Source: an uncultured Bacteriovoracaceae bacterium (GTDB lineage Bacteria > Bdellovibrionota > UBA1018). From it: a stretch of DNA of 64,000 bases. The stretch is from assembly GCA_964363305.1 (NCBI GenBank), contig CAYIHX010000015.1, positions 1,173 through 65,172 on the forward strand, read 5' to 3'. The notes below the pieces were generated by a model. It was given only the letters and a program-made list of their open reading frames with translations. It ran no database searches and was not told the DNA's origin. The position numbers and the translations under genes are program-made. This document shows positions 10,670-44,366 of the stretch, in pieces (within the stretch, counting starts at the first letter, position 1; each line of letters starts with the position of its first letter).

Positions 10670-12874
10670 TTAGAGCGACCACCGGAGATGAAGAGAAACT
10701 CCCGCGCTCACATCGAGAGAGGAAGACGTGAAGCTCTTCAGCCAGCGATCGAGTGAAGCACGAAGATCCATCGAAGCATCGAGTGACCATCGTCCTGAAA
10801 TTGGGAACCTCCATGCAGTGCTCGATTCAAAAATTGCAATTGCAGGAGAGCCGTAGAGGAGCCCTGAGAGCGGCAGTGCGAGAGATGCCGTCGTACTCGT
10901 CGGCAGAAAAATAAGTTTAGAATCAAAATTAAAATTGAAGCTGGCGGAGGGTCCAATTGTGAATCCATATTCGGTTGAAAGCGATTGCGGACCCCCTTTT
11001 ACGAAACGAAAGGGGAGTTTCGCCATTCCTCCGAGCGACCAATTGCCCCATCGACGTTCGGCGCGAAGATGTCCTTGAATTGCTCGAATCGGGTCGGAAA
11101 ACGCCAAATTTGTCCCCGGCGGGGCTCGAAAAGCCCAAAGGTCGGCTTGGAGGTCGATCATCCAGCGTGTTTTGGTGCTCGTTCCGAGCTCAGTATCGAT
11201 CATTAGACTCTGGCGAAGGGCCGCCGAGCCGAGTGAGACACGTTCGACGATTGAACTTCCCCATTGCGCGCGAGTTCCGACTCCTGTGTACGCGGCGATT
11301 CGTGCGTTCCGAAAGACGAGCGGCTCTTTTTTTGTCGTCTCAGTCACGAGAATTGGAGATGGCGCGCTTGATTCCTGAGGTTCTTGATCACGCTGTTCCT
11401 GGTCGACCGCCCCGTAGATCTCATTTGCTTGAGGAAGACTGATTTTTTTCGCCGCGGAATAGCTTCCTGCTCTGCCATTCTCGCGGATCGAAGCGATTCG
11501 GTAGTAGTAGGTGCGCCGATTGCTCGGAGAATGTGAAAATCTCCACGTGAACTCGGGCGCTTCGACATCTTGGCGTTCGATCGTTTGTTTGAAGGATTGA
11601 GAATCAGAAATCTCGACGCGGTACCGAACGGCTCGTTTGACAGATTTCCATGTCAGGTGAATTTCGAGTGCCTCGGGCGGCTCCTCAGCCGCCCAAGCTT
11701 CCGAGATAAAGAGGCTAAGCCAACTCGTGCGTTTCTTTGGTTTGGCCGGGGGAATAGCGCTGGGGCCTGGCATCTTCTTTATTGTGATCTCAGCTTTGTC
11801 GAGATCGGGAGGGGGCAGCTCTTCTTCGGTCGGGTGACTTGGAATTCGACTGGAGACGGAATGTGCATCTGCGGAATTTTGAATTCTGAATGGTCGGCTT
11901 GGACTACTGCTTCCGCTACGAGCACCGCGGACGCGCCAATAGTACAATTCGACTCCGTTTGGAGGACCGAGACTCACCTTGGCTTGAACCTCCGCTCGCG
12001 GTGTAGGAGATTGCGCAATGGTTATCCGTTTGATGATTTCTGAGAAATGCTGGTTCTTGGCCACCTCAAGCACAAGGGGCTCGTCCGGATAAGCGGGGGA
12101 GGGAGAGCCCCTCCAAGAAAAATTGACTTCGGTCGTTGATGTTCGTGACTCAATCACTTCATTTACGTCCGGATATAGGGGCATGAATGGGGGGGTATCC
12201 ACTTGGGGGGCGAGTTGGGAGGTAGGATCGCTCGCGAGAACAACTTTCTCACCGCGTTTGAGATCGACGACCCCCGTGGGGGACACCACTTCCGCGGCTC
12301 CTTCGGATAGGTAGAACTGGGTTTCTCCGCTTTCGGCGACGCTGATGGAGAACTCAGCTGTCGCATTGGGGCGCAGATGCGCGCTCCCGACGATGAGTTC
12401 AAATGCTTTCTGTTGAGAACGCGGACTTTTCCGGAGGGTGCCCCTCAGTAAGCGAATTCGAACCGGGCCGCCGCGAGCGAAGGAGTCAGACCGTGAGACC
12501 TCGATCATGCTCTGAGGTCCGATGATGATCCCCAGCCCGTCATTGAATTGAACTTCCGCCTGTCCTGATTCGCCAGTCATCAGGTGGTCATATTCCCGGA
12601 GGTTGGTCTGCGATGGGGCCGATAGCCAGGCTAACTCTCCCTCGGACCGCAACCGCGTGTCTCGACTGCTGTCCACCAAGGAGGCGATTTCCGGTCTGTC
12701 CGAAAGTCGGCTGGACGCGTCCCCGGCGATCCAGTTCACCCATCGATCTAGATCAAAGAGAAGATAGATCTGGGCCGCCAGCACCAGCAGCGAAAGGCCG
12801 ACGAAAGTTGGCCACTTCTTATTTGTATTTTGTTGAACAGGTAGAGCATCCACCATTGTAGCTTTGTCGCCCAT
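10670..12874 (-). CDS. Large secreted FecR-domain protein with Pro-rich linker and two FN3-like (YYWRV) modules
   Basis: N-terminal TM/signal, then FecR-like domain (AEVQFNDGLGIIIGPQSMIEV...FELIVGSAHLRPNATAEF). FN3 hallmarks YYWRVRGARSG and YYYRIASIRENG. Start set at MGDK (12874) rather than the ORF-track 12952. Confidence 0.55.
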   Translation of the reverse strand: MGDKATMVDALPVQQNTNKKWPTFVGLSLLVLAAQIYLLFDLDRWVNWIAGDASSRLSDRPEIASLVDSSRDTRLRSEGELAWLSAPSQTNLREYDHLMTGESGQAEVQFNDGLGIIIGPQSMIEVSRSDSFARGGPVRIRLLRGTLRKSPRSQQKAFELIVGSAHLRPNATAEFSISVAESGETQFYLSEGAAEVVSPTGVVDLKRGEKVVLASDPTSQLAPQVDTPPFMPLYPDVNEVIESRTSTTEVNFSWRGSPSPAYPDEPLVLEVAKNQHFSEIIKRITIAQSPTPRAEVQAKVSLGPPNGVELYYWRVRGARSGSSSPSRPFRIQNSADAHSVSSRIPSHPTEEELPPPDLDKAEITIKKMPGPSAIPPAKPKKRTSWLSLFISEAWAAEEPPEALEIHLTWKSVKRAVRYRVEISDSQSFKQTIERQDVEAPEFTWRFSHSPSNRRTYYYRIASIRENGRAGSYSAAKKISLPQANEIYGAVDQEQRDQEPQESSAPSPILVTETTKKEPLVFRNARIAAYTGVGTRAQWGSSIVERVSLGSAALRQSLMIDTELGTSTKTRWMIDLQADLWAFRAPPGTNLAFSDPIRAIQGHLRAERRWGNWSLGGMAKLPFRFVKGGPQSLSTEYGFTIGPSASFNFNFDSKLIFLPTSTTASLALPLSGLLYGSPAIAIFESSTAWRFPISGRWSLDASMDLRASLDRWLKSFTSSSLDVSAGVSLHLRWSL

Positions 12875-14921
12875 CTGTGATTCTATATCTATGGTCGGCA
12901 GCGTGAAATACCCAATTCGCACAAAGATGGCGGCGCTGTGCGCTTTTCTCACTATTTTTGCGACCGGAGCCTATCTTGCGCTCGCCGTATCCGTGTTTCG
13001 TGCGGATAAACTCGAGCTCGTGTATGAATTGAACCACTCGACAGTCAGATCACTGACAGGTGAGTTAGATTCCTTCATTAGATCCGCCCGGGAGCAGATT
13101 CGCATTCTCGCCCAGGTGAGCTCGAATCGGGAAATCGTGGAAGGGCTGCTGGCTGGCGACAAGGATGTCCTTCATTTCGCTCTGTTCGAGAGGGCGAAAG
13201 AGTGGAAGCCGCTCGTTGAATTTTCAGGGCGGGATCAAAAACAGATGTCTATGGACCGAGCCTCCATCCCCTGGGCTCGAATCGAGAAGGAAGGACTGGT
13301 AACTTGGAATTCTTCTCGTGTGCCGGAAGATATGCCCGCAATTTCCGTGGCTGTTCGAATTCTGGCGGAAAATGATCGTGGTGCGGAACTTATTGGGGTT
13401 CTCGAGTATAAAGCTGATCTCATCCTTAGAGCGATGGGCGCACGATCGTTGGCGGAGGTCTTTGCCGTTGAATCTTCAGGTAGGGTGTATCTGCACCCCA
13501 GTTCAGACCATCTTTATGTGTCTAAGCTTTTACAGGAGGATCCGCTGATCAAAGAGGCGCTCCAGAGCCCTCTTCGGACTCAGGTTCGCAACTACAGGGA
13601 CGGAAACAAGGAGTGGCTTGCGGCCTTCTCAACGACGGAGCTGGGAGGGGTTAGGGTTCTGTCCCGTGTCGATTCTTCTCAGGCGTTGCGCGCAGCCAGA
13701 GGGCTCATCGCGCGGTCCGTAGTGTTTTTCGGCATCATCGTTACCTTGTCGATCATTCTAAGTACTTGGCTTGCGCGTCAGTTTACCCGCCCGTTGTCTT
13801 CCTTGGTTGAGGCTACGGAGCGGATATCGAAGGGTGACCTGAATGTAACTCTCCATGTCGATACCCGGGATGAGCTCGCAGTTTTAACGAGTTCGTTCAA
13901 TGTCATGGCGTTTGAACTCGCCAGACAACGCGCGGCGCTTGAACAGCAGCAGCATGAGTTGACGTTGAAGGTGAAAGAGCGGACGCAGTCGCTTGAGACG
14001 GAAAAAAGAAGTACGGCCGAGGCGCAGCAGAATCTCCTAAAAACCACGCGTCTAGCCACGCTAGGAGAGATGGCAGGCGTTACCGCACATGAAGTTTTAA
14101 ATCCGTTGAACAACATGAACATTCGAATTGAGAAATTCAAAGCGCAAACCGCGGCATTGAGAGAGTCAGACTTGCAGGTTTTAGGTCAGATTTTGTCCGG
14201 ATGGAGGGCCGCCGTGGCTGCGGGGGGGGTGAGTCAGCTGGCCTCGGAGCTTGCGAAATCCGTGAGCCCGGAAAAACGCCTCATTGATGAGGATCTCGAT
14301 AACCTCGATGGCATCGCGAAAGACTTTCAAGGGACGCTGTCGTCTTTCAGGGAAGATATGGTTTTTTTCTCCTCCCAGATCGCTCGTGTCACTCGCATCG
14401 TGAATAACATGCGCTCACTTTCTAGGGTCGGAGGTGAGCGACGGCCAATCGATGTTCACCGTCCTCTCGATGACACTCTTTTGACGCTTAAAGATGCTGC
14501 GCAGAAGAGGAAGGTCTCGTTGGTTTCTGAATATAGCCAAGACCCGAGAGAAAACTTCGTGATCATTGCTGACCACGATGAACTGATTCAGGTATTCTCT
14601 AATCTGGTGCGAAACGCGATGGATGCCCTCATGCAGACTCGGGAGCTTCGTGCGCCCGAGGTTCGGATTCGAACTTCTTGGGACGAAGGCCGAGTTATTG
14701 TACAAATTTGCGACAACGGACCCGGCGTTGATGCCGCGATTCGTGCCCGTCTTTTCGAGCCGAATGTCACGACGAAGAGCGCGGCCGATGGAACAGGTCT
14801 TGGTCTGAGCATTTGTAGGCGTATCATTCGGGCGTTTGACGGCGATATCGATGTCGTGGACCGAGAAGATGGACAGCCCGGTGCGGTATTCAGAGTCTGG
14901 TTACCGAGGGTGAGGTCATGA
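12864..14921 (+). CDS. Sensor histidine kinase (TM-sensor-TM, HAMP, HisKA, HATPase)
   Basis: HAMP region (SLVEATERISKGDLNVTL...ELAVLTSSFNVMAFEL), H-box AGVTAHEVLNPLNNM, G-boxes DNGPGVD/GTGLGLSICRRII. The true start is probably an internal Met (12891 or 12927) because the divergent FecR gene starts at ~12874. Confidence 0.85.
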   Translation: MSPICDSISMVGSVKYPIRTKMAALCAFLTIFATGAYLALAVSVFRADKLELVYELNHSTVRSLTGELDSFIRSAREQIRILAQVSSNREIVEGLLAGDKDVLHFALFERAKEWKPLVEFSGRDQKQMSMDRASIPWARIEKEGLVTWNSSRVPEDMPAISVAVRILAENDRGAELIGVLEYKADLILRAMGARSLAEVFAVESSGRVYLHPSSDHLYVSKLLQEDPLIKEALQSPLRTQVRNYRDGNKEWLAAFSTTELGGVRVLSRVDSSQALRAARGLIARSVVFFGIIVTLSIILSTWLARQFTRPLSSLVEATERISKGDLNVTLHVDTRDELAVLTSSFNVMAFELARQRAALEQQQHELTLKVKERTQSLETEKRSTAEAQQNLLKTTRLATLGEMAGVTAHEVLNPLNNMNIRIEKFKAQTAALRESDLQVLGQILSGWRAAVAAGGVSQLASELAKSVSPEKRLIDEDLDNLDGIAKDFQGTLSSFREDMVFFSSQIARVTRIVNNMRSLSRVGGERRPIDVHRPLDDTLLTLKDAAQKRKVSLVSEYSQDPRENFVIIADHDELIQVFSNLVRNAMDALMQTRELRAPEVRIRTSWDEGRVIVQICDNGPGVDAAIRARLFEPNVTTKSAADGTGLGLSICRRIIRAFDGDIDVVDREDGQPGAVFRVWLPRVRS

Positions 14922-16141
14922 GGAACAATACGATTCTCATTGTTGACGATGAACCTGAGACTTTGCAGGGCTACCGAGATTTTCTGTGTGAGAACCTTGG
15001 TGAGGCGCCGGCTTCTCGTAAGAGTTCACGCCAGGCGACGTCGAACAGTCCCCAGGAAGCGGTTCCCTCTCCTCGTTCGGGAGAAAGTTATCGTCTTCTC
15101 TCTGCGGCGTCCGGCGAGGAAGCGATCGCCTTGGTGAAACAGGAGTTGGCGGAGGGACGCCGGGTTGCAGCAGGATTTTTTGATGTCAAGCTTGAGGGCG
15201 GGATCGATGGTTTGACCACGATCCAGGAAATCAAGAAGTTGGACCCGGATCTTCGGTGTGTCGTGGTGACCGCCTATCATGATCGCTCGGTCGACGAGAT
15301 CAATACGCTCTTTGGCGAAGCATTTAAGGACCATTGGGACTACTTGAACAAGCCTTTTACTCGAGGGGAGATCGTCCAAAAAGCGCGCCAAATGGTGTCC
15401 GCCTGGAACAGGGAGAAGGAGGTTCATTTTCTCCATGAGCAGCTGATCCGGTCTGAGCGACTGGCAGCCATTGGACAGGTTGCTAGGGGCGTTGGCCATG
15501 AATTCGGAAATATTTTGTTAAGAATCATGGGAAAGGCCGATCTGGCCCTGAGCGAGACGGACATGTCGAAAGTGAAGGGCCATCTTGAAGTGGTCATCAG
15601 CGCTTCCGAGAGAGCCAGTGTGATCGTCCGAAATCTGCAGTCTTTTTCCAAGACAGAACCCGTATTTGAAGCGGGGAGTGTGAATACCGTGATTGAGGAG
15701 GCCCTGTCCCTAGTCGGTCATGAATATCAGAGGCAGACAATTTTGGTGGAGAGATTGTTGCCGGCCTTGCCCGACGTGAAGATGGACCGAGTGCGTATTG
15801 GGCAGGTCGTTCTCAATCTCCTTATTAATGCGATGCACGCAGTTGTCGCCAAAAACCCAAAGGGCGGAAAGGTGTCGATCTCGAGCCGATCTCTCGAGGC
15901 CGGTGGCATTGCGGGCGTCGAGGTTTCCGTGGCGGATTCGGGGACAGGGATTCCTTCCGAAGTGCTTCCGCGTATTTTTGATTTCGCGTTTACGACCAAG
16001 GGCGAGGGCGGTAGCGGATTGGGTCTTGCTGTGTCTAAGGAGATTATCAATGCTCATTCAGGCCAGATCGCAGTCAATACTCAGCTCGGTCAGGGCGCTG
16101 ATTTTCGGTTTTGGATTCCCTTAGGGGGGCCAGCTAGATGA
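14918..16141 (+). CDS. Hybrid response regulator-histidine kinase (REC-HisKA-HATPase)
   Basis: REC (ILIVDDEPETL...FFDVKLEGGIDGL), H-box LAAIGQVARGVGHEFGNIL, HATPase ADSGTGIP...GGSGLGLAVSKEII. ATGA overlap with the upstream kinase. Confidence 0.85.
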   Translation: MRNNTILIVDDEPETLQGYRDFLCENLGEAPASRKSSRQATSNSPQEAVPSPRSGESYRLLSAASGEEAIALVKQELAEGRRVAAGFFDVKLEGGIDGLTTIQEIKKLDPDLRCVVVTAYHDRSVDEINTLFGEAFKDHWDYLNKPFTRGEIVQKARQMVSAWNREKEVHFLHEQLIRSERLAAIGQVARGVGHEFGNILLRIMGKADLALSETDMSKVKGHLEVVISASERASVIVRNLQSFSKTEPVFEAGSVNTVIEEALSLVGHEYQRQTILVERLLPALPDVKMDRVRIGQVVLNLLINAMHAVVAKNPKGGKVSISSRSLEAGGIAGVEVSVADSGTGIPSEVLPRIFDFAFTTKGEGGSGLGLAVSKEIINAHSGQIAVNTQLGQGADFRFWIPLGGPAR

Positions 16142-17403
16142 GTGGTACAAAAAAGACTGACCCACATTTTTTAGTAGTGGATGACGATGATGCAAGCCGC
16201 GATACAATCATCGAGTATCTCTACTCAATGGGTTTTCCGCACGTACAACAAGCCAAGGATGGCCAACAGGCGTTGTTGATTCTCGACCGCGACCCGAGTA
16301 TCAATTTCATTATTTCAGACTGGGACATGCCAAAGCTGAATGGTTTGAATCTACTTCAGAAAGTCCGCTCGAGTCCCAAGAGGTTTAATATCCCGTTCCT
16401 TATCGCGACGTCCCCGGTTTCCCAGGAGACTGAAAAAATTGTCCTGGCGGCGGAGAACATGGTGTCGTCATATATTATCAAACCGTTTCGCGTGAAGACC
16501 TTTCAGGAGAAGGTACTCGCTCTCGTCAACGGAGAGAACAAGCAGCCAAAGGGGAGCGCGGTTGTCATTGACGATGATGATGATGCACGAGAGATGGTTG
16601 AGGAGTATCTTAGAAAGGAAAAATTTCAGGACGTGAAGACGTTCAAGGAGGGTCGATCGGCCCTTGCGTATCTAGAGACCGCTTTCGCCAAGGTTAGCTT
16701 GATTGTATCTGATTGGGAGATGCCTGAGATGAACGGCATCGAGCTCCTCAAAGCGTGCAAAGCGGATTCTAGAATTCGAGATATTCCGTTTCTCATGATC
16801 ACGTCTCAAACTTCTATTGAGCGGACCAAAGTGATGCAGGCCGCGCGTTCTAATGTCGACGATTACCTGCTGAAGCCATTCAGTAACGACGATCTCAAGA
16901 AGCGGATCGGATTTCTCATGGAGCGCACAACGGCTCGATCGAAAACCACGAAAGGGATTGTGGCAGCTCTCGATCATCTTGAACATGCTCATTACAACAA
17001 GGCTATTCAGCTTTTCGAGGAGAGCCTCATGATTGATCCACAGAGCGATGTCGCTCTTCGGGGTCTCGGCGATGCCCTTACCAAGACAAAGGGGTATGAC
17101 GCGGCTCTTCCGCATTATAAGAGGGCGGTCGAGGCGAATCCCGCAAATGCAAAGGGCTATATCAAGCTGGCTCAAACTTATGAGCAGCTCGGCCTTTTTG
17201 ATAAAGCGCAAGCGGTGCTGCAAGCGGGAGTCGGAGAGATCGGATTTAATGCCGATCTCCATTATCAGCTTGGGTGGATTTATCATAAACAGGGAAAGAA
17301 CGATTTGGCGCGTATGGAGTTCCAAACCACTCTTGAGATTCAACTCGGTCATCAGGAGGCCCGTTTGATGCTCGATCTTTTAGGCCAGGAGAAGCGGGAT
17401 TGA
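16138..17403 (+). CDS. Tandem-receiver response regulator with C-terminal TPR repeats
   Basis: Two REC domains (VVDDDDASRD...ISDWDMPKLNG and VIDDDDDARE...VSDWEMPEMNG), followed by three TPR-like repeats. Confidence 0.8.
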   Translation: MSGTKKTDPHFLVVDDDDASRDTIIEYLYSMGFPHVQQAKDGQQALLILDRDPSINFIISDWDMPKLNGLNLLQKVRSSPKRFNIPFLIATSPVSQETEKIVLAAENMVSSYIIKPFRVKTFQEKVLALVNGENKQPKGSAVVIDDDDDAREMVEEYLRKEKFQDVKTFKEGRSALAYLETAFAKVSLIVSDWEMPEMNGIELLKACKADSRIRDIPFLMITSQTSIERTKVMQAARSNVDDYLLKPFSNDDLKKRIGFLMERTTARSKTTKGIVAALDHLEHAHYNKAIQLFEESLMIDPQSDVALRGLGDALTKTKGYDAALPHYKRAVEANPANAKGYIKLAQTYEQLGLFDKAQAVLQAGVGEIGFNADLHYQLGWIYHKQGKNDLARMEFQTTLEIQLGHQEARLMLDLLGQEKRD

Positions 17404-18344
17404 ATCTGATGGAACTTAAATCAAGACGAATTTTGGTGGTCGAGCCTGGGCGTACGGCCTTTGAGCTGGCCAATGATATTCTCGTCCCGCTTGCCGCGCA
17501 CCTCACTCATGTTCCCGACATCGATACGGCCTTACATCGGGTACGAGCTTGGAAGCCGCATCTGATTTTGATCGACTGTGGGCTGATCGTGGACAGAAAT
17601 GACCGTGATTCCATTATTGATACGTTGAGGTCGATTTCTAGTGATGAATATGTCTCGGTGGTGTTGCTGTGCGAGGAAGGGTTTTCACCTGAGCTGTTGA
17701 AGATGCTCTCCGTAGGTGGCGATGATTTTTTAATTAAGCCCCTCAAGAAGAACGAGGTGATCGCGCGTCTCAGCTGTGCAGTACGTATGCGGGACCTTCA
17801 TGATCAGCTGAGGAGGTCTCAGCATCGCATTGAAGAGTTGACGGCTATCGATGATTTGACCGGTTTGCTGAACATGAAATATCTATACCGCCATGGCGAG
17901 GATGACGTCGCGCGATGTCGGAGATTTCGAAAGCCGGTGACGGCTGTCCTGGTTGATATTGACCATTTTTCGGCCATCAACGAGGCGCATGGCTTCCCTT
18001 TCGGTAGCTATGTAATCAAGGAGGTCGCCGGTTTGGTCCGCAGTTGCATTCGAAAGGTAGATCGGGTGGCCCGCGTGGGAGCAGACGAGTACTTTGTTCT
18101 CTTGCCGGAGACTGATTTGGCGGGAGCTGAGTTTGTCGCAGAGCGCATCCGCGATACGATTCAGAACCATGAACACCGCTCGGAGAAGGAGTTTGCAAAG
18201 GTGACTGTGTCTATCGGGGTGGCTGGGTTCGGAATCGGTGAGGAGATGGGATCTCTCAACGATTTTTTTAGGAATGCCAGCGAGGCCCTTCGTTCAGCAA
18301 AGGTGGCCGGAGCGAATCGAATCGAAGTCTTCTCATTCGCCTAG
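17400..18344 (+). CDS. Response regulator with GGDEF domain, degenerate active site (GADEY)
   Basis: REC-like N-terminus (LILIDCGL). GGDEF fold (DDLTGLLN...SIGVA). RKVD-x5-GADEY instead of RxxD-x5-GG(D/E)EF. Confidence 0.8.
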   Translation: MNLMELKSRRILVVEPGRTAFELANDILVPLAAHLTHVPDIDTALHRVRAWKPHLILIDCGLIVDRNDRDSIIDTLRSISSDEYVSVVLLCEEGFSPELLKMLSVGGDDFLIKPLKKNEVIARLSCAVRMRDLHDQLRRSQHRIEELTAIDDLTGLLNMKYLYRHGEDDVARCRRFRKPVTAVLVDIDHFSAINEAHGFPFGSYVIKEVAGLVRSCIRKVDRVARVGADEYFVLLPETDLAGAEFVAERIRDTIQNHEHRSEKEFAKVTVSIGVAGFGIGEEMGSLNDFFRNASEALRSAKVAGANRIEVFSFA

Positions 18345-18398
18345 CGGCTTCACTTGAGTCTTGCCCCTGATGCGTTGCAGTGATAGCGCGTATTTGCT

Positions 18399-19169
18399 TT
18401 GGGGGTTTTCTTGCGGACGATTGGGTTTGTCTTTTATTTTCAAAGGGTTGGGCTTGTTTTTGGGCTTATGGCATCGGCAAGCGCCTATGCTGCTCATCCC
18501 ACGAGGTTTCTCCAGGAGGACGACGAGCTGAGACTTACCCCCGCGGACGTGCGGCGGGTTGACCATCTTCCCGCCTCTGCAATTGCGATTTCGACCTGGC
18601 GATCGGGACTTCGGTTCACGACGGACGCGTCGATGCTCCTGACTGGGGCGGATTTTGATTCGATATTGAGAGATTCTCGTGCTTTTGGGCAATATCGGCA
18701 GATGCGCATGCCGAATCTCATCGCTAGCGATGTGGTAATCCCTGGCGCGAGCGATTTCGTGGTCTGGACCCACATGGAGACGCGGGTGTTGATTTTTAGC
18801 CAGGTATCAAAGCATTTCATTCAAGTGCGTTTGATGCCCGGGGAAAACGAACGGGGAGGGATAGGCCAGACTTGGGTCCTCTATCACCCCACAGAGGCGG
18901 AGAGGCGCGCACGTGGATTTAGTGCGGCTGCAAAGCCTGATTTCAGTGCCTTTAGCGATTTTTGGGGCGCCTGGTACATGGAGCCGCAACCCGACGGCTC
19001 TATCTATTGCCGATACGTGATCTCTGGCTTAGTCAGAAATCCCCTTGTGAATGGTGGCCCGGGCGCCTCCGTGGCTATGCGCCAGTTTGGCAATGGGGTA
19101 TATGGAGTGATGAGTCGTCTTTTCGAAAGAGCTCATCTTCGCGCCCAGGCGGTTCAACGGACACCCTAG
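18399..19169 (+). CDS. Hypothetical secreted protein (possibly SRPBCC/START-like)
   Basis: Signal peptide ending ASASAYA. No clear domain; secondary-structure pattern weakly suggests SRPBCC. Confidence 0.35.
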   Translation: MGVFLRTIGFVFYFQRVGLVFGLMASASAYAAHPTRFLQEDDELRLTPADVRRVDHLPASAIAISTWRSGLRFTTDASMLLTGADFDSILRDSRAFGQYRQMRMPNLIASDVVIPGASDFVVWTHMETRVLIFSQVSKHFIQVRLMPGENERGGIGQTWVLYHPTEAERRARGFSAAAKPDFSAFSDFWGAWYMEPQPDGSIYCRYVISGLVRNPLVNGGPGASVAMRQFGNGVYGVMSRLFERAHLRAQAVQRTP

Positions 19170-19203
19170 ACCTGGCAACCACGCTAGTTATACGCTGGGA
19201 TTC

Positions 19204-21486
19204 ATGAGCGAAAAATTGGCCCCGCTCGATGGGCAGGAGCACATTAAGCGGAAGCGGGAGTGGCTCGCTATCGTTTTGCTTGTCGGCCTGTTTGCAGGCC
19301 TGACGGCGCTTGAATTTCGTTTTACAAAAATTTCGAGCACCCTTCCGTTCGTTACTTCGATTTTTTTCTTCGGGTTGCTTAACATCAATCTTATTATCTT
19401 GATCGCGTTAGTTTGGCTGGTTTCACGTAATATCGGCAAACTTTTCATCGAACGTAGACGGCGCGTTCTAGGCTCGCGATTGAAAACTCGGTTGGTGATC
19501 GCTTTTCTCGGGCTGTCGATCACGCCAACTCTTGTTTTGTTTGTTGTCTCGGCGCTTTATATCAATTCGAGTTTCGACAAATGGTTTTCTTTGAAGATCC
19601 AGAATACGCTTCAAGCCTCGCTCGACATTACGCGCACTTATTATCGGAATGCCGAACAAACGACCACCCACTTCGCGGAGCACATGGCAAAGAGTCTGCA
19701 GAGGAGACTTCTAACGGAGCGGCAGGGCTTGGGGGCTGCCGGGGCGCCTCCCCTGCAGATTCCCTCGTGGCTTCCTGTTTTTCTTGAAGCGCAAAGGGAC
19801 CTCCTCGCTCTCGATGCGGTCGAATATTATTCCGGCCCGGTCGACGAACGTTCTATTGCGCAGCGCCCGTATAGCAAGGAGCGCCCAGATCATTTTCCTC
19901 GATTGAGCGTCGACCTTCTGGAGAAGGCATTTGCCGGCGAGACCATCTCTGCCATTCAGCACATCGGATCGGGAGATCTGATTCGAACGATCATACCAGT
20001 GCGAACTCCCGATCGAAGCGTTCTCGGGGTTGTTGCCGTCAATAGCTTCATTCTTGTCAGTTTGGTGAACAAGGTCGATGAAATTTCCAGTGTTTTTGAG
20101 GATTACAAAGACGTCAATCCGCTCAAATACCCGATGAAGACCACCTATTTGGTGATTCTGATCATGATCACACTCGTTTTGATCTTCGTCGCGATTTGGG
20201 TGGGGCTCTATATGGCGAGAGAGCTGACTGTTCCGCTCGAACGATTGGTCCAGGGAGCGCAGGCCGTGGGTGCGGGCAATCTCGATGTGCGAATCGCCGG
20301 GACGGGCCATGATGAAATCGCTGTTTTGGTAGAGTCTTTCAATCGAATGACAGCCGACCTGGGCGAAAACCGTCGTCGGCTAGTGCAGGCCAGCGCGGAT
20401 TTGGAAAAGCGACGCTTACAGCTCGAAGCGGTTCTGACGAATGTGGGTACCGGTGTGATCGTCGTGGACCAGGCCGGGGAGGTGACCACTTTCAACAGGT
20501 CGGCCTCCTCCTTGCTCTCCATCCCGTCTGCTTCGGCATTAGGTAAACCTTTTGAGGAGGTTTTGCCGCCTGAATGCGAGGACCTTGTCGCGTCCGTGAA
20601 GGATTCGTTGGCTACCCTGAATCAGGGTCGAGGGGGGGCGAGCTCTTCGCCTGAACCAGTGCAATGGGCGATGAGAATGGCAGACGAGGTGCGAACCTAT
20701 AATGCGGTATTGACGCCACTTCGAGATTTGCTGAGGGACACTCCTACCGGGGTCGTCATCGTCATTGACGATCTCACTCATCTGGTCAAGGGCCAACGCG
20801 AGATGGCTTGGCGCGAGGTCGCCAGGCGAATCGCGCATGAGATCAAAAATCCACTGACTCCGATCAAGCTTTCGGCGCAACGGCTCCAGCGCCGATTAGG
20901 AGATCTGCGAGGAAAAGACGCCTCTCTCCTCAAAGAGTGCACGGATACGATCATTCGCCATACGGACGAGTTGAAGGAGATGGTGAACGAATTTTCAAAT
21001 TTTGCTAGATTTCCAGAAATTTCCCCCGCCCCCCATGACTTGAATCACGCGTTGGCTGAGGTGGTCTCTCTGTATAGTCAGGCGCATCGGGAAATTCAGT
21101 TCCCTTTTGAGCCGGATACAAACCTACCGGTTTTCGATTTCGATCGAGATCAGGTGAAGAGAGTGTTGATCAACTTGATTGATAATGCTGTCGCCGTTTC
21201 ACCGCGTAGAATAAAAGTGGAGACTCATTTTAATGCGGATCTTCAGATGGCTGCCTTGGTGGTGACGGACGACGGTCCGGGGATGCCCGAGGAGGTCCGA
21301 ACTCGGGCGTTCGAGCCTTATTTTTCGACCAAGAGCGGTGGCTCCGGCCTTGGATTGGCAATTGCGAAGCGAATCATTAATGATCATGATGGTTTCATTC
21401 GGGTTCAGTCTTCTCCTGAGGAGGGGACCAAATTCCTCATTGAGTTACCCACTGGATCTCGGCAGAAGATGGTGAAGAGCAAATGA
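19204..21486 (+). CDS. NtrY-like sensor histidine kinase (TM, HAMP, PAS, HisKA, HATPase)
   Basis: Multi-TM N-terminus, HAMP (LERLVQGAQAVGAGNLDVRI), H-box RIAHEIKNPLTPIKLSAQRL, HATPase VTDDGPGMPEE...GGSGLGLAIAKRII. Confidence 0.85.
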   Translation: MSEKLAPLDGQEHIKRKREWLAIVLLVGLFAGLTALEFRFTKISSTLPFVTSIFFFGLLNINLIILIALVWLVSRNIGKLFIERRRRVLGSRLKTRLVIAFLGLSITPTLVLFVVSALYINSSFDKWFSLKIQNTLQASLDITRTYYRNAEQTTTHFAEHMAKSLQRRLLTERQGLGAAGAPPLQIPSWLPVFLEAQRDLLALDAVEYYSGPVDERSIAQRPYSKERPDHFPRLSVDLLEKAFAGETISAIQHIGSGDLIRTIIPVRTPDRSVLGVVAVNSFILVSLVNKVDEISSVFEDYKDVNPLKYPMKTTYLVILIMITLVLIFVAIWVGLYMARELTVPLERLVQGAQAVGAGNLDVRIAGTGHDEIAVLVESFNRMTADLGENRRRLVQASADLEKRRLQLEAVLTNVGTGVIVVDQAGEVTTFNRSASSLLSIPSASALGKPFEEVLPPECEDLVASVKDSLATLNQGRGGASSSPEPVQWAMRMADEVRTYNAVLTPLRDLLRDTPTGVVIVIDDLTHLVKGQREMAWREVARRIAHEIKNPLTPIKLSAQRLQRRLGDLRGKDASLLKECTDTIIRHTDELKEMVNEFSNFARFPEISPAPHDLNHALAEVVSLYSQAHREIQFPFEPDTNLPVFDFDRDQVKRVLINLIDNAVAVSPRRIKVETHFNADLQMAALVVTDDGPGMPEEVRTRAFEPYFSTKSGGSGLGLAIAKRIINDHDGFIRVQSSPEEGTKFLIELPTGSRQKMVKSK

Positions 21487-22880
21487 ATCACCGCGAAATT
21501 CTTATCATCGATGATGAAGCCTCGATTCGAACCACCCTCGCGGAGGCGCTGAAGGACGAAGGATACCGCGTCATCGTTGCGGCGGACGGCAAAGCCGGGT
21601 TGGAGAGTATCCGGGAGAACCATCCCGACGTAGTACTGCTGGATATTTGGATGCCTGGAATCGATGGGATTGAGACCCTGAAGCAGATCAAGGCGGGAGA
21701 TCCCGGACAGGTAGTCATTATGATGTCCGGGCATGGCACCATTGAAACGGCCGTGAGATCGACCAAATTTGGTGCTTACGATTTCATTGAGAAGCCCCTT
21801 TCGCTGGAAAAGCTACTGGTCACCTTGGCCAACGCTCTGAGCGCGCAGGACCTCGCCCGAGAAAACCGAGTTTTGCGCAAACAGGTGAGGAAGCAAAGGC
21901 TCCTCGTGGGGGAGAGTCCTCAAATGCGGCAGCTGATGGACTTGATACGTAGGGTGGCGCCGACCACCGGTTCAGTCCTCATTACGGGAGAGAATGGAAC
22001 GGGAAAAGAGTTCGTTGCTCATGGTATTCACTCGCACTCCTTGCGTTTCGTGAAGCCATTTGTCGAAGTGAACTGCGCGGCCATCCCTGAAGAGCTCATC
22101 GAGAGTGAGCTTTTTGGCCACGAAAAGGGCGCCTTCACCGGGGCGACCCACCTCCGTCGAGGAAAGTTTGATCTGGCGAACGGTGGTACGCTTTTTTTAG
22201 ACGAGATCGGCGACATGTCGTTGAAGACCCAGGCCAAGGTATTGCGCATCCTTCAGGAGCAGAAGTTCGAGCGGGTGGGCGGCACGCAAACTCTGTCGGT
22301 GGATGTTAGAATTGTTGCCGCCACGAACAAAGACTTGAAAGCCGAGATTGCTCGAAATCAGTTTCGTGAGGATCTCTATTACCGCCTCAACGTGATTCCC
22401 ATACAGGTGGCGCCTTTGCGGGAACGAGGCGGCGATGTCGCGCTCCTCGCGGCCCATTTTCTAGTGGAAAACGCCCAGGCCTATGGGCGGCGGCCGCGAG
22501 TGTTGAGCCCGGAAGCGTTGCGGGCGCTCGAAAACTATTCCTGGCCCGGCAATGTCCGAGAGCTGCGAAACTTGATCGAACGCATCATCATCCTGACCTC
22601 GGAGTCCGAGGAGGGCCAGCCCGTCTCGGCTGCGTCTATTTTGGCTTATCTCGAGCCAGACTCCTCCCGCGAGGAGGGGGTCGTCGCTTCTGACTCGGAG
22701 GGCTCTAGTCCAGCCGGGCCGCGAAATTTGCGAGACGCCCGAGTCGAGTTTGAGAAAGATTTCATCGTAAAATCGCTTAAAGAAAACGACTGGAATATCT
22801 CAAAGACGGCGGTCGCCATGGGAATTGAGCGTTCGTATCTCCACCGCAAGATCAAGTCATACGGAATTGAAAGCGAGTAG
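21483..22880 (+). CDS. Sigma-54-dependent response regulator (NtrX/NtrC family: REC, AAA+, Fis-HTH)
   Basis: REC (ILIIDDEASIR...LLDIWMPGIDG), sigma-54 activator GESPQMRQL...ITGENGTGKE...ESELFGHEKGAFTGA, and a C-terminal HTH. ATGA overlap with the kinase. Confidence 0.9.
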   Translation: MNHREILIIDDEASIRTTLAEALKDEGYRVIVAADGKAGLESIRENHPDVVLLDIWMPGIDGIETLKQIKAGDPGQVVIMMSGHGTIETAVRSTKFGAYDFIEKPLSLEKLLVTLANALSAQDLARENRVLRKQVRKQRLLVGESPQMRQLMDLIRRVAPTTGSVLITGENGTGKEFVAHGIHSHSLRFVKPFVEVNCAAIPEELIESELFGHEKGAFTGATHLRRGKFDLANGGTLFLDEIGDMSLKTQAKVLRILQEQKFERVGGTQTLSVDVRIVAATNKDLKAEIARNQFREDLYYRLNVIPIQVAPLRERGGDVALLAAHFLVENAQAYGRRPRVLSPEALRALENYSWPGNVRELRNLIERIIILTSESEEGQPVSAASILAYLEPDSSREEGVVASDSEGSSPAGPRNLRDARVEFEKDFIVKSLKENDWNISKTAVAMGIERSYLHRKIKSYGIESE

Positions 22881-22929
22881 CGGTGAAAGTTGCACACAGG
22901 GGGGGAGCTGACATACTGTTCCGCTCGCT

Positions 22930-24402
22930 ATGGCAGAAAAAATCACTCCCCGTGTCCAGGATTTCTCTCAATGGTACCAAGACGTCGTATTGCAGGCGAA
23001 GTTAGCCGACTATAGCCCGGTCAAGGGCTGCATGGTGATTCGGCCCAACGGCTACTCGATCTGGGAGCGAATCCAGAAGGATCTAGATGCGAAGATCAAG
23101 AAGCGGGGCGTTCGTAACGCTTATTTTCCGCTCTTTATTCCGGAGAGTTTTCTCAAAAAAGAAGCGGAGCATGTCGAGGGTTTCGCTCCCCAGTTAGCGG
23201 TGGTGACGCATGCCGGCGGCAAGGAGCTTGAGGAAAAGCTCGTGGTTCGTCCGACGTCCGAGACGATCATCAACAGCATGTTTTCAAAGTGGGTGCAGTC
23301 CTATCGCGACCTGCCGCTGCTGATTAATCAGTGGGCGAATGTGGTCCGGTGGGAAATGCGGACCCGGCTCTTTCTTCGGACGACCGAGTTTTTGTGGCAG
23401 GAAGGGCATACTTGTCACGCGACTGCCGAAGAAGCCGAGGAAGAAGCGCGAGAAATGCTTCGGGTATACACGCAATTTTCAGAAGAGACCTTGGCCATGC
23501 CGGTATTGGCTGGCCGTAAGAGCGAGAGCGAAAAATTCGCGGGGGCCCTGCGCACTTATTGCATCGAGGCAATGATGCAGGACAAGAAGGCGCTCCAGGC
23601 CGGAACCTCTCACAATCTTTCTACTCACTTCGCGAGCGCGTTCGAGACGAAGTTTCTCGACAAGGATGGCGTGCAAAAGTTCGTGCATCAGACGAGCTGG
23701 GGCGTGTCCACGCGTTTGATCGGCGGAATGGTGATGACTCACTCGGATGACAAAGGTCTGGTTTTGCCGCCCTCTTTGGCGACGACTCATGTCGCCATCG
23801 TGCCGATCATGGCGAATGCGGCAGCCAAGCCACAGGTTCTTGAGATGGCAGACCGGATTGCCGCGGAGATTCGGCGAGAGGCGGAGCGGGCGGGGTTCGC
23901 TTACGAGATTGGTGTGGTCGTCGATCGCGATGAATCTCGCCAGCCGGGTTGGAAGTTCCACGAGTACGAGCTCCTGGGTGTTCCGGTTCGCATTGAGGTC
24001 GGTCCGCGAGATCTCGAAAAAAATCAAGCCGTCTTGACTCGCAGAGATGACGGAAAGAAGGAATTTATTCCTCTGGACCAGTTGGCGGTGAAATGTATTG
24101 CGACCTTGAAGGCGCTGCAAAAGGACCTCCTCGAGCGGGCTCGTAGCCATCGCGAGGCAAATACTCATCGGGTCGACTCTTACGCTGATTTCAAGACACA
24201 GTTGGACGAGAAGGGTGGCTTCTTCCTGGCCTCTTGGTGCGGAACGAAAGAATCGGAGGCTCTTGTGAAGGAAGAGACGAAGGCCACTATTCGCTGCCTT
24301 CCTCTGGATGCGAATTTTCAACCTCAGAAGGATGATCGGCCCTGCATGATCACGGGTCAAAAAACCGGCAATGTGACCGCCATTTTCGCACGCAGCTATT
24401 GA
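22930..24402 (+). CDS. proS: Prolyl-tRNA synthetase, archaeal/eukaryotic-like type (no insertion editing domain)
   Basis: N-terminal [45 protein letters not shown] and class II motifs; 490 aa. Confidence 0.9.
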
Positions 24403-27657: not shown

Positions 27658-27733
27658 GCTGAAGTAGCTCAGTTGGTAGAGCAACGGTTTTGTAAACCGT
27701 AGGTCGCGGGTTCGAGTCCCGCCTTCAGCTCCA
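27658..27733 (+). tRNA. tRNA-Thr (anticodon UGU)
   Basis: Cloverleaf: acceptor GCTGAAG/CTTCAGC; anticodon arm ACGGT-ttTGTaa-ACCGT; T-loop TTCGAGT; CCA encoded. Confidence 0.9.
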
Positions 27734-27797
27734 TTTTCCCTCTTCTCAATCGGAGACCCCCCTGTTACAAGCAGGGGCCCTAAAAGACATATTTGAT

Positions 27798-27883
27798 GGA
27801 GAGATACCCAAGTGGCCAACGGGACCAGACTGTAAATCTGGCGGCGAATGCCTTCGAAGGTTCGAATCCTTCTCTCTCCACCA
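27798..27883 (+). tRNA. tRNA-Tyr (anticodon GUA), long variable arm
   Basis: Acceptor GGAGAGA/TCTCTCC; anticodon arm CCAGA-ctGTAaa-TCTGG; long extra arm; CCA encoded. Confidence 0.9.
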
Positions 27884-28005
27884 TTTTATTTCGTAGGTCA
27901 GGCTGCAAATGCCCCTAAAGAAGGCATTGCGGAACTCCTGATTTTAGGGGAAGTTCCCGGTGCTAGATCAGCTCCGGGCCAGTTTTTTGGTTTTTAGGGG
28001 TAGGT

Positions 28006-28082
28006 GCGGGCATAGCTCAGTTGGCTAGAGCGTCAGCTTTCCAAGCTGAGGGTCGAGGGTTCGAGTCCCTCTGCCCGCTCCA
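28006..28082 (+). tRNA. tRNA-Gly (anticodon UCC)
   Basis: Acceptor GCGGGCA/TGCCCGC; anticodon arm TCAGC-ttTCCaa-GCTGA; T-loop TTCGAGT. Confidence 0.9.
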
Positions 28083-28083
28083 G

Positions 28084-28159
<76 letters not shown>

Positions 28160-28223
28160 TTTTTTTAACAACAGCTAAAGACCCCAGGAAGGTCAATAGC
28201 ACTTAGCGGAGGCCAGTAGGTAT

Positions 28224-29414
28224 ATGTCGAAAGAGAAGTTTGACCGTTCAAAACCCCACGTCAATATCGGGACGATCGGGCACGTCGACCACGGGAAGAC
28301 GACCCTGACCGCCGCTATTACAACCGTTCTCGCGAAGAAGGGCCTGGCTCAGGCTCGCGGGTACGATCAGATCGATAACGCGCCTGAAGAGAAAGAGCGC
28401 GGGATTACGATCAATACGACGCACGTAGAGTATTCGACCGTAAATCGTCACTATGCGCACGTCGACTGCCCGGGCCACGCCGACTATGTCAAAAACATGA
28501 TCACCGGCGCCGCCCAGATGGACGGAGCCATTCTTGTGGTTTCCGCAGCGGATGGCCCGATGCCGCAGACACGTGAGCACATTCTTCTGGCTCGCCAGGT
28601 CGGCGTTCCGGCGGTCGTGGTGTTCATGAACAAGTGCGACATGGTGGATGATGCCGAACTTCTGGACCTTGTCGAAATGGAAGTTCGTGAACTCCTCACT
28701 ATGTACAAGTACCCTGGTGATTCGATTCCGATCATTAGAGGTTCTGCCTTGAAGGCGATGGAAGGCGATGTGGGCGACCTCGGCGAGTCGGCGATTATGA
28801 AGCTGATGGAAGCTTGTGACAGTTACATCCCGCAGCCTAAGCGTGAGAAGGACAAGCCGTTCCTCATGCCGATCGAAGACGTCTTTTCGATTTCGGGTCG
28901 TGGAACTGTTGTCACCGGCCGTGTGGAGCGCGGTGTGATTAAGGTTGGCGAAGAGTGCGAAATCATTGGCCTTCGTCCGACGGTTAAAACGGTTGTTACT
29001 GGTGTTGAAATGTTTAGAAAGCTGCTCGATCAGGGCGAGGCTGGCGATAACATCGGCGCACTTCTTCGGGGTACGAAAAAAGAAGATGTTGAGCGTGGTC
29101 AGGTTCTGGCCCATGTTGGAACGGTTACTCCTCATAAAAAGTTCAAAGGCTCGGCGTATATCCTCACCAAGGAAGAAGGGGGTCGTCATACTCCGTTCTT
29201 CAAGGGATATCGGCCGCAGTTCTACTTCCGCACGACGGATGTTACCGGCGTTGTGACCCTTCCTCCGAATGTGGAGATGGTCATGCCTGGCGATAATATT
29301 CAGATCGAAGTCGAGTTGATCACTCCGATCGCGATGGAAAAGGAACTGCGTTTCGCAATTCGTGAAGGTGGCCGTACGGTCGGCGCCGGAGTGGTTGCGG
29401 AAATCGTCGAGTGA
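28224..29414 (+). CDS. tuf: Elongation factor Tu
   Basis: [22 protein letters not shown] motifs; 396 aa, near-canonical EF-Tu throughout. Confidence 0.99.
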
Positions 29415-29506
29415 GGCAGATTCAATAGGTTCCTTCGGGGTTCATTCTCGGGGAGGAGGGCGAGTCGCTTTCTTCCCCGCTTTTTGAGTTTTGAGGGTAT
29501 TAGGTT

Positions 29507-29582
29507 AGGGCAGTAGCTCTAATGGTAGAGCGGCGGATTCCAAATCCGTAGGTTGTGGGTTCGAGTCCCTCCTGCCCTGCCA
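29507..29582 (+). tRNA. tRNA-Trp (anticodon CCA)
   Basis: Acceptor AGGGCAG/CTGCCCT; anticodon arm GCGGA-ttCCAaa-TCCGT; T-loop TTCGAGT; CCA encoded. Confidence 0.9.
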
Positions 29583-41551: not shown

Positions 41552-41626
41552 GGGCGCATAGCTCAGTGGTAGAGCAGGGTCTTTACACGGCCAAGGTCCA
41601 AGGTTCAATCCCTTGTGCGCCCACCA
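41552..41626 (+). tRNA. tRNA, most likely tRNA-Val (anticodon UAC)
   Basis: Acceptor GGGCGCA/TGCGCCC; D-arm GCTC-agtggta-GAGC; anticodon arm GGGTC-ttTACac-GGCCA (one G.A mismatch at 27-43); T-arm CAAGG-ttcaatc-CCTTG; CCA encoded. Confidence 0.75.
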
Positions 41627-43711: not shown

Positions 43712-44366
43712 TCATTCAGTTTGGGTTCTTGATGATGAGGAAGATTGTCTCTTCGTGGCGGAGCAGAGTCTCTCAGACGCGTACAACGTGAGGACTTTTT
43801 CTTCTTTGGCCCAACTTAAAGGCGCGCTCGATCAGAATCTCGATACCTTGCCGGTCGCATTGGTCGCAGATCTGAGGTTGGCGGATGGAAATTTTCTTCA
43901 GTTCTTGGATCTAGAGGCCTCTGATTTAGCCAAAATTTTTCCGATCGTTATTACTTCTTCCCTTTATGACTCGGAAACCATCCGGGGTGGTTATCATCGT
44001 GGGAGTTATGACTATTTAGTGAAGCCTTTTCGTCCGTCTGAGCTCAAGGTCAAGGTTGAGCAGGCATCTCAGAAGTTTGTTTCTGACCGAAGTAGGCGGG
44101 TTGCAAGTCAGCTGGAGTTGACCCCAAAAGAGGCGCGACTGTTCGAGTACATGCATCGGTTTGCTCCACGGGCGGTTTCCAGACAAGAGCTCCTCGCTGA
44201 GGTTTGGGCAGATATGAAGATCCATCCGAAGACGATCGATGTTCATATTCATAACCTGAAGAAGAAAATTGTCGTGGCCGGATGGATCATCGTTTCGTCT
44301 AAACTTGGGTTTTGGTCCATCACTTCAGCAGGGAGTTCAGGGGATGGGGTGCCACCATCTTGCTGA
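43656..44366 (+). CDS. OmpR-family response regulator (REC plus winged-helix)
   Basis: REC (VWVLDDEEDCLF...VADLRLADGNF), C-terminal OmpR winged helix (RQELLAEVWADMKIHPKTIDVHIHNLKKKI). Real start probably at the internal Met at ~43701. Confidence 0.8.
   Translation: MPIQNMKKLVRRLQRMEHDHSVWVLDDEEDCLFVAEQSLSDAYNVRTFSSLAQLKGALDQNLDTLPVALVADLRLADGNFLQFLDLEASDLAKIFPIVITSSLYDSETIRGGYHRGSYDYLVKPFRPSELKVKVEQASQKFVSDRSRRVASQLELTPKEARLFEYMHRFAPRAVSRQELLAEVWADMKIHPKTIDVHIHNLKKKIVVAGWIIVSSKLGFWSITSAGSSGDGVPPSC

Follow-up and report, generated by a model that had tools for sequence, protein, structure and literature searches.

A degenerate GGDEF protein with a strictly conserved inhibitory site, a candidate c-di-GMP effector, beside a kinase gene cluster in uncultured Bdellovibrionota

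Does the last gene of a four-gene signalling cluster in an uncultured Bacteriovoracaceae bacterium (Bdellovibrionota) encode an enzyme that makes a cyclic dinucleotide, or a protein that binds one? The cluster lies in a stretch of 64,000 nucleotides (nt) of assembly GCA_964363305.1 (contig CAYIHX010000015.1, positions 1,173 to 65,172 of the forward strand), here called the window, and its genes are termed P1 to P4 in the order in which they are read. The original prediction described a phosphorelay operon ending in a GGDEF-domain protein, P4, with a degenerate active site (A-site) and an intact inhibitory site (I-site), and proposed that the output of the cascade was a receptor for c-di-GMP (cyclic dimeric guanosine monophosphate) rather than a cyclase. 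Comparison of P4 with its relatives leads us to favour, with a confidence somewhat above even, a reading in which P4 is an inactive effector that binds c-di-GMP at its I-site and is a conserved partner of the module encoded by P1, P2 and P3. The features of P4 on which the argument turns are listed below, with residue numbers taken from the 314-amino-acid (aa) open reading frame (ORF) that starts at TTG 17400 and family columns given in PleD numbering.

17409..18344, + strand: P4, a receiver (REC) domain, linker helix and degenerate GGDEF domain, 311 aa (314 aa from TTG 17400), from Pfam and AlphaFold2
17844..18320, + strand: GGDEF domain of P4 (PF00990, 104.8 bits, E = 5e-30), with PDB matches to DgcR, PleD, GcbC and GacA
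18051..18062, + strand: primary I-site R218-K-V-D221
18144-18146 and 17913-17915, + strand: partner I-site residues R249 (PleD R390) and R172 (PleD R313), from the alignment
18078..18092, + strand: A-site motif G227-A-D-E-Y231 (GADEY), from the sequence and the family alignment
18006..18008, + strand: base-selectivity residue S203 (PleD D344, GacA S348), of the Hypr type, from alignments
17430..17771, + strand: degenerate receiver of P4 (Pfam Response_reg, 26.5 bits, below the 30.2 cut-off)

The PF00990 match spans residues 149-307 and stands well clear of the model's cut-off of 23.8, and TIGR00254 scored 129.8 against a cut-off of 37.4. The AlphaFold2 model of P4 had a mean predicted local distance difference test (pLDDT) value of 91.5, with a helix at residues 114-145 connecting REC and GGDEF, and its top structural matches by Foldseek were WspR, DgcR and PleD; by sequence, the nearest solved relatives were DgcR (6zxm, E = 3.7e-34) and PleD (about 1e-32). 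A family of 105 clusters (E <= 1e-59) was assembled around P4 and aligned with PleD, DgcR and nine Hypr-type proteins. An alignment to PleD and WspR had been proposed as the check on the original prediction, and with P4 aligned to PleD and DgcR, and WspR among the best structural matches, the I-site was seen to be kept and part of the A-site lost.

The string on which the original prediction was built is present as described, reading RKVD-RVARV-GADEY at residues 218-231, and since a strong match to the GGDEF domain surrounds it, the string cannot be put down to chance. The RxxD motif stands five residues ahead of the A-site motif, the correct spacing, and is accompanied by the equivalents of R390 and R313, the arrangement looked for in an I-site effector. 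Across the family, R359 and D362 were found in 105/105 members, R390 in 100/105 and R313 in 97/105, with all four kept in the window protein. The I-site is thereby more strictly conserved than almost anything else in P4.

The state of the A-site is different. In PleD, D327 and E370 bind the metal, N335 and D344 the base, and K442 and R446 the phosphates, while K332 stabilizes the transition state; D327, N335 and D344 have been reported as essential (PMC7288161; PMC12943098). The accepted signature of an active enzyme is [G/A/S]G[D/E]E[F/Y], in which variation between G, A and S occurs at the first position only (PMC6456294). P4 departs from it since its second glycine (motif position 2, PleD G369) is alanine, as in 96 of the clusters, the others having glycine (six) or serine (three). 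The change is of an inactivating type: in experiments the same substitution drastically impaired four V. fischeri cyclases (PMC10402110) and, as G287A, abolished the function of V. cholerae CdgA (PMC3359988). Two further residues of the competent-cyclase set are lost in the window: K332 is replaced by S191 (serine in 92 clusters, never lysine or arginine in the 105), and R446 by A305, a position at which the family has proline, alanine, threonine, serine or asparagine and a basic residue in 3/105 only. D327 is asparagine in 98 clusters and aspartate in seven, among them the window protein, where it is kept as D186. The motif aspartate and glutamate (D229 of the window occupying the PleD E370 position) and N335 are each invariant (105/105), K442 and R366 are each kept in 103/105 (K301 and R225 in the window), and the last motif position is phenylalanine in 92 members and tyrosine in 13.

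Members of the family that carry glycine at motif position 2 are still without K332 and have also lost R446, except for P0091 (AGDEF) and P0103 (SGDEF), and those with a complete GGDEF motif lack both residues. Since the glycine-bearing members are without K332 and mostly without R446, it appears to be the family background, and not a single residue, that is non-catalytic. The family seems to have fixed its loss of catalytic function in orderly fashion (G369A, K332S, replacement of R446, D327N), with the I-site and part of the A-site under strong constraint. The combination of G369A, the losses of K332 and R446 and a complete, strictly conserved I-site thus points to an inactive domain that would still bind a cyclic dinucleotide. 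As a separate observation, two basal members (locus L010, 10001-10927, whose copy is P0091, and locus L011, 10001-10936) have the motifs AGDEF or AGDEY and keep D327, P0091 also keeping R446; at both loci the P4 receiver is intact and the P1-P3 cassette is present. These copies may be still-active intermediates on the route to a pseudo-enzyme.

The original prediction had counted the phenylalanine of the motif, together with the second glycine, among the degenerate positions. This part of the claim fell away when the base-selectivity position was considered. The role of this position is known from GacA S348 and Bd0367 S214 (PMC9140294, PMC6456294), and the natural enzymes with serine or threonine there, the Hypr enzymes, exclusively pair aspartate at motif position 3 with phenylalanine or tyrosine at position 5 (PMC6456294). 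As GGDE[F/Y] is natural in such enzymes and P4 has serine at the selectivity position, the change from phenylalanine to tyrosine does not indicate degeneration. Across the family, the residue at this position is serine in 65 clusters, threonine in 20 and asparagine in 20, and never aspartate. The cross-dimer position (PleD R300, GacA Y304) is M159 in the window and methionine (75), phenylalanine (21) or leucine (5) in the family, never arginine, the canonical controls having arginine. P4 therefore shows the Hypr marks S203, D229, Y231 and a non-arginine M159, and departs from the active Hypr set in having GA, S191 and A305 where P0106-P0119, P0126 and P0129 keep GG, lysine and arginine.

The next-best database matches after the P4 family were likewise of the Hypr type by signature. 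In an exhaustive profile search of 1.84 billion representatives, the top matches beyond the family included the Hypr-type proteins P0126 (GGDEY) and P0129, the best full-length matches there with a single REC; the window P4 shares 35% identity with P0126 along its entire length, and the basal P0091 is 41% identical to it, a value equal to the closeness found within the family. A BLOSUM62 neighbour-joining tree of the GGDEF domains recovered the P4 family as monophyletic, and no sister relationship with the Hypr-type proteins was resolved in it; the kinship accordingly rests on signature residues and pairwise identity. Taken together, these data suggest that the P4 GGDEF domain is derived from, or closely allied to, the Hypr type.

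Two other readings were considered. One is that the GADE[F/Y] family is a pseudo-enzyme offshoot of the Hypr synthases of cyclic GMP-AMP (cGAMP) that has kept the purine-promiscuous half of the active site and the cross-dimer residues, acting as a receptor for 3'3'-cGAMP or for the ATP/GTP balance, or as a partner that alters the product of an active Hypr monomer. We regard this as very improbable; if true, a dedicated kinase cascade would govern the Hypr pathway. In the paper on Bd0367, whose main text contains neither 'receptor' nor 'effector', no protein is named that receives GGDEF-made cGAMP, and were P4 to bind cGAMP instead of c-di-GMP, a real gap would be closed.

The other is that P4 could still be an enzyme, a non-canonical Hypr-like GADE[F/Y] cyclase producing cGAMP, cyclic di-AMP (c-di-AMP) or c-di-GMP, either slowly or upon activation, with RxxD providing product feedback. 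Such an enzyme would make sense of the conserved metal, base and general-base residues (D229/E230, N335, K442 and R366), of the 'Goldilocks' pairing of a serine or threonine selectivity residue with D at position 3 and F or Y at position 5, of the D327 kept in the window copy, and of the alanine at position 2, whose conservation resembles selection and not drift. It is also the case that AGDEF and SGDEF motifs can be active (PMC3974145), an AGDEF-type arrangement being active in VCA0965, and that the natural GADEF of XOC_2335 is functionally required. We nevertheless judge the enzyme reading to be unlikely: the change from glycine to alanine at position 2 inactivated five cyclases in which it was tested, K332 is never basic and R446 almost never so, D327, reported to be essential, is asparagine in most of the family, and members with a restored GGDEF motif do not regain K332 or R446.

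It could also be that the conserved half of the A-site is itself a ligand site, holding a purine nucleotide (GTP, ATP, guanosine tetra- or pentaphosphate ((p)ppGpp), or a bound dinucleotide), with the I-site in a secondary role. The pattern of loss has this shape, in that the base-binding N335, the S/T/N at position 344 and the acidic pair are retained and the phosphate and transition-state residues are gone; in XOC_2335, the aspartate and glutamate of the natural GADEF are needed in vivo. Other nucleotide roles have been described for degenerate GGDEF domains, as in the ATPase YybT (PMC3974145), and the PDB holds PleD structures with ppGpp or pppGpp (9g85, 9g86). Set against this, loss of the R446 and K332 side chains should weaken triphosphate binding, and conservation of the I-site exceeds even that of the A-site, so that we consider this explanation quite unlikely.

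The second half of the question concerns the proteins with which P4 acts. The genes that precede it are as follows.

12864/12891-14921, 14918-16141, 16138-17403 and 17400/17409-18344, + strand: ORFs of P1, P2, P3 and P4, lying head to tail in the ORF list
12891..14921, + strand: P1, a membrane sensor histidine kinase (Pfam HAMP 2.1e-15, HATPase_c 2.6e-22 and a weak dCache_1 match)
14918..16141, + strand: P2, a receiver-kinase (Pfam Response_reg, HisKA and HATPase_c), in ATGA overlap with P1
16138..17403, + strand: P3, two receivers and a C-terminal TPR region (Pfam Response_reg 1.4e-39 in two stretches, and many TPR models)

Four genes on the same strand with the domains originally claimed were borne out by the ORFs and by Pfam. 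The junctions were said to be ATGA overlaps throughout; this holds for P1/P2 (14918-14921) and P2/P3 (16138-16141), and not for P3/P4, where the sequence is GGGATTGAATCTGATGG. Here the P3 stop is TGA 17401-17403, and P4 starts either at TTG 17400, giving a TTGA overlap, or at ATG 17409 after a 5-nt spacer. The ATG is favoured because the database copy of P4 and its two nearest homologues begin with MELK or MELR. The start of the operon had been placed at 12864. An ORF does begin there, and P1 itself probably starts at ATG 12891 or 12927, since a start at TTG 12864 would create an overlap with the divergent ORF upstream, and since the nearest relative has an orthologue of 674 aa. With a common strand, two ATGA overlaps, a 5-nt spacer and an order P1-P2-P3-P4 that is identical in 12 other loci, P1 to P4 are a real four-gene unit for which co-transcription is predicted. 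A promoter scan of 12000-24000 found promoter-like sites at chance level (5 against 6.6 expected), and a terminator scan of the same interval found after P4 only a weak hairpin (18370-18391), with no clear operon boundary.

P1 is laid out as a transmembrane segment, a periplasmic region of about 250 aa, a second transmembrane segment, HAMP, the H-box AHEVLNPL, whose His lies at nt 14088-14090, and a HATPase domain. The dCache_1 match, weak in the window, is clear in P1 orthologues, and the H, N and G boxes are kept in six loci. P2, called a hybrid REC-kinase in the original prediction, deserves that name only as an N-terminal receiver fused to a kinase core; its phosphotransfer residues (DD, D89, T and K of the receiver, H194 of HisKA) are invariant in six loci. 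A Ser/Pro/Gln-rich insertion of about 30 residues (residues ~27-56) lies between the first helix and the second strand of the P2 receiver, and the Pfam receiver match covers residues 57-156 only. In P3 both receivers are canonical, with acceptors D61 and D192 and quintets that are invariant in six to seven loci, followed by TPR repeats at nt 16963-17343. The full phosphorylation quintet is thus present in the P2 receiver and in both receivers of P3, and a multi-step two-component module is the best explanation of P1-P3.

The receiver of P4 in the window reads E-P-D-C-K at the corresponding positions: E15-P16 (17442-17447), the retained acceptor D59 (17574-17576), C91 in place of Thr/Ser, and the retained K113. 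P16, at the second acidic position, aligns with the Mg-binding Asp13 of CheY. When the relatives were compared, the state of this receiver was found to follow the genes upstream: the quintet is intact (D-D-D-S-K) in 10/13 loci with P1-P3 upstream, in 1/5 loci with a single upstream kinase and in 0/10 loci without an upstream kinase, where PyrD lies directly upstream. Fisher's exact test of receiver integrity against the upstream cassette gave p ~3e-4, a value uncorrected for loci that are not phylogenetically independent. After the first 19 loci, the upstream context was predicted from the receiver residues alone and was right in 9/9 new loci. The three cassette loci with a non-intact quintet are the window, a 67%-identical relative (D-T-N-L-K, in which the acceptor Asp is gone) and L001 (E-Q-N-S-K).

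As the quintet is intact mostly where P1-P3 lie upstream, a link between P4 and P1-P3 is supported, and the P1 and P2 kinases probably also phosphorylate the P4 receiver in most cassette-bearing lineages. The columns of the GGDEF domain are equally conserved with or without an intact receiver, which implies that the core function of P4 lies in the GGDEF domain. Receiver state tracking the cassette in this way amounts to a natural experiment on the decay of a response regulator after loss of its kinase. In the loci with a single kinase-like gene in place of P1-P3 (L003, L005, L017, L025 and L031), that gene encodes 233-402 aa and in at least three cases resembles P2; these loci look like a partly decayed cassette.

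A second pair of signalling genes lies on the other side of P4.

19204-21486, + strand: NtrY-like kinase (Pfam NtrY_N, HAMP, PAS, HisKA and HATPase)
21483-22880, + strand: NtrX/NtrC-type sigma-54 activator (Pfam REC, Sigma54_activat and HTH_8; GAFTGA motif)

These two genes overlap by ATGA at 21483-21486. NtrY_N scored 37.6 bits against a cut-off of 23.2, and the NCBIfam NtrX model 486.3 against a cut-off of 600; as GAFTGA is intact, the NtrX-like regulator should be a working sigma-54 activator. In the window and in 24/26 loci of relatives, the pair follows P4 directly or with a single gene in between. One could therefore ask whether P4 works with this pair, as a second response regulator or a kinase modulator, and not with P1-P3. 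In 17/17 genome loci and in most others, P4 is the gene directly upstream of it and is read in the same direction, often with gaps of 25-100 nt, and in those genome loci P1-P3 are present in six only. The P4 quintet is, however, intact in none of the ten loci in which NtrY/X alone is adjacent, which argues that NtrY is not the kinase of P4. Moreover, in L027 and L029 the pair is inverted or missing while P1-P3-P4 is intact, and the region from RsmB-PyrD to ProS-PyrF is syntenic, so the adjacency may be no more than inherited gene order. An allegiance of P4 to the NtrY/X pair is accordingly held to have little probability. The NtrY-like kinase was also considered specifically as the phosphodonor of P4 and was rejected, given that the quintet is never intact with NtrY/X alone and that P4 stays with P1-P3 upon rearrangement. 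A literature search found no known link between NtrY/NtrX and a GGDEF protein.

Several observations weigh against the interpretation of P4 as an inactive, I-site c-di-GMP effector coupled to P1-P3. The window protein keeps D327, N335, D229, E230, K301 and R225, and the near-invariance of N335, D370, E371 and K442 across the family goes beyond what a pure I-site receptor would be expected to require; conservation of the A-site could mean residual or altered catalysis, or ligand binding at the A-site. The basal copies at L010 (P0091) and L011 combine AGDE[F/Y], a motif type that can be active, with D327. On the side of the receiver, the acceptor aspartate is gone in the relatives P0003 and L001 despite the presence of P1-P3, and the covariation counts come from loci that share ancestry. 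Phosphorylation of P4 in the window, and hence its role as the output of the cascade in this genome, is doubtful, two of the five receiver signature residues having been lost. Of the central claim made originally, the inactive cyclase with a usable I-site is thus strengthened by the additional losses of K332 and R446, and the description of P4 as the cascade output is put in question here by its degenerate receiver.

Under the effector interpretation, P4 would be a dimeric, non-catalytic REC-GGDEF protein that binds a cyclic dinucleotide at its I-site. The ligand would most probably be c-di-GMP, given that GacA, a related protein, has an I-site that seems to recognize this dinucleotide specifically (PMC6456294). 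Binding there would cross-link or re-orient the coiled-coil dimer, altering the conformation or the partners of P4, and the adjacent TPR protein P3 is a candidate for such a partner. P1, as a periplasm-sensing HAMP kinase, would respond to something outside the cytoplasm, and P1 and P2 would hand phosphate on among the receivers of P2 and P3, that of P4 included wherever it is intact. In lineages with an intact receiver P4 would integrate a phospho-signal with a nucleotide signal, and in the window lineage the nucleotide input would probably be dominant. It is of relevance here that mutation of the acceptor aspartate of GacA did not abolish its function, I-site occupancy being the main control (PMC6456294).

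P4 relatives in a scan of species-representative genomes were all from Bdellovibrionota, the best being 52% identical. Their genomes are 16 metagenome-assembled ones, labelled Oligoflexia, Bacteriovoracaceae, Bdellovibrionia, Bdellovibrionales or simply 'bacterium', and 'Bdellovibrionota bacterium FG-1'. The 67% relative came from outside that scan and has the same gene order as the window, the gene P5 that follows P4 included; an identical copy of P4 was found on one 5-kb ENA metagenome contig, Hain_H52_01um. The exhaustive profile search returned roughly ten P4-family clusters at 50% identity. All seven proteins examined stayed below the NCBIfam equivalog cut-offs, P4 itself scoring 180.5 against a cut-off of 474 for the PleD family and 135.7 against 500 for DgcR, and no description of the P4 family, or of a GADEF- or Hypr-type receptor, was found in the searchable literature. 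The P4 family is coherent, confined to uncultured Bdellovibrionota and new as a family; degenerate GGDEF sensors of c-di-GMP are already well known. Its interest, which is moderate, lies in the apparently ordered, family-wide loss of catalysis among proteins with the signature of the rare Hypr type, in the covariation of receiver and cassette, and in a small chance that it senses cGAMP. It also offers a candidate protein sensor for a phylum whose predation is controlled by cyclic-dinucleotide signalling.

The wider setting is chromosomal, the window carrying leuS, rsgA, rsmB, pyrD, proS, pyrF, tuf, secE-nusG-rplKAJL-rpoBC and rpsB-tsf. The backbone order in the group is RsmB, PyrD, P4, NtrY-like kinase, NtrX-like sigma-54 activator, ProS, and in the window and a subset of relatives a block consisting of an SH3-like gene, a divergent FecR-domain gene, P1, P2 and P3 stands between PyrD and P4. 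Two of the flanking genes are listed here.

10670..12952, - strand: FecR-domain protein of 760 aa (Pfam FecR, E = 6e-07), divergent from P1
18399..19169, + strand: P5, 256 aa, with a signal-peptide-like N terminus and no Pfam or NCBIfam match

The longest ORF of the FecR gene overlaps that of P1. A homologue of it lies divergently upstream of P1 in L001, L002 and L010, and also, with faint FecR matches, in L027 and L029; the FecR-domain protein may be part of the P1-P3 system. P5 fills a variable slot between P4 and the NtrY-like kinase gene; several relatives have an ORF of comparable length there (268 aa, 232 aa and 224 aa, the last giving a weak Polyketide_cyc/SRPBCC match), and others have none.

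Elsewhere in the window, a YcaO-domain gene (44337-45314, - strand, Pfam E = 5e-15) stands beside several small ORFs without assigned function, a neighbourhood that could be a peptide-modification cluster. Another HATPase_c kinase overlaps an OmpR-type regulator at 42005-44366 (+ strand), the receiver match of the latter being 27.4 against a Pfam cut-off of 30.2. Six transfer RNA (tRNA) genes are located at 27658-29579 and 41552-41623, and these were the only hits of an Rfam scan of the whole 64-kb window, which showed no c-di-GMP or cGAMP riboswitch and no other Rfam family. Over positions 1-64000 each 2-kb bin had a positive GC skew and the + strand carries nearly all of the genes, which fits a leading-strand stretch.

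The proteins with which P4 may be compared fall on both sides of the catalytic divide. Among active enzymes, DgcR (Leptospira biflexa), PleD (Caulobacter) and WspR (Pseudomonas) share with it the succession of REC, coiled-coil and GGDEF and the I-site residues, and differ from it in having GGEEF, intact D344, K332, R446 and R300, and a canonical receiver. The Hypr enzymes GacA/GSU1658 of Geobacter (6d9m) and Bd0367/DgcA of Bdellovibrio are comparable too, sharing a single REC, a linker helix and GGDEF together with the serine selectivity residue, a non-arginine cross-dimer residue, aspartate at position 3, F or Y at position 5 and an RxxD I-site. In P4, by contrast, the second glycine is alanine, the lysine of K332 is serine and the arginine or lysine of R446 is alanine, and in most members of the family D327 has become asparagine.

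Among non-catalytic proteins, PopA of Caulobacter has the same REC-GGDEF architecture as P4. PopA, PelD (Pseudomonas) and SgmT (Myxococcus) are degenerate GGDEF proteins with RxxD that act as c-di-GMP receptors (PMC3974145), and CdgA of Bdellovibrio (Bd3125) binds c-di-GMP with a dissociation constant (Kd) of ~2 uM and has no cyclase activity (PMC3271064). CdgA comes from the same phylum as P4 and has, like it, a non-canonical A-site motif with RxxD exactly five residues upstream; it interacts with the receiver protein RomR and with a TPR protein, which echoes the REC-REC-TPR neighbour P3. Its gene is reported to stand beside that of a histidine kinase, Bd3126, which is suggestive. The motif of CdgA is, however, GVNEF and that of the P4 family GADE[F/Y], and the P4 family has in addition the near-invariant D-E, N335 and K442 and a Hypr-type selectivity residue. 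No GVNEF or GV[DN]E[FY] GGDEF motif was present in the 267 proteins retrieved, among them the best 150 of 1.84 billion representatives by family profile, and no GVNEF protein in the best 120 word-indexed matches. P4 was therefore rejected as a close CdgA orthologue, being set apart from Bd3125 by the motif described for the latter, with distant kinship possible. By analogy with these receptors, P4 most likely resembles CdgA, PopA, SgmT and PelD in its manner of working, and is a member of none of their families.

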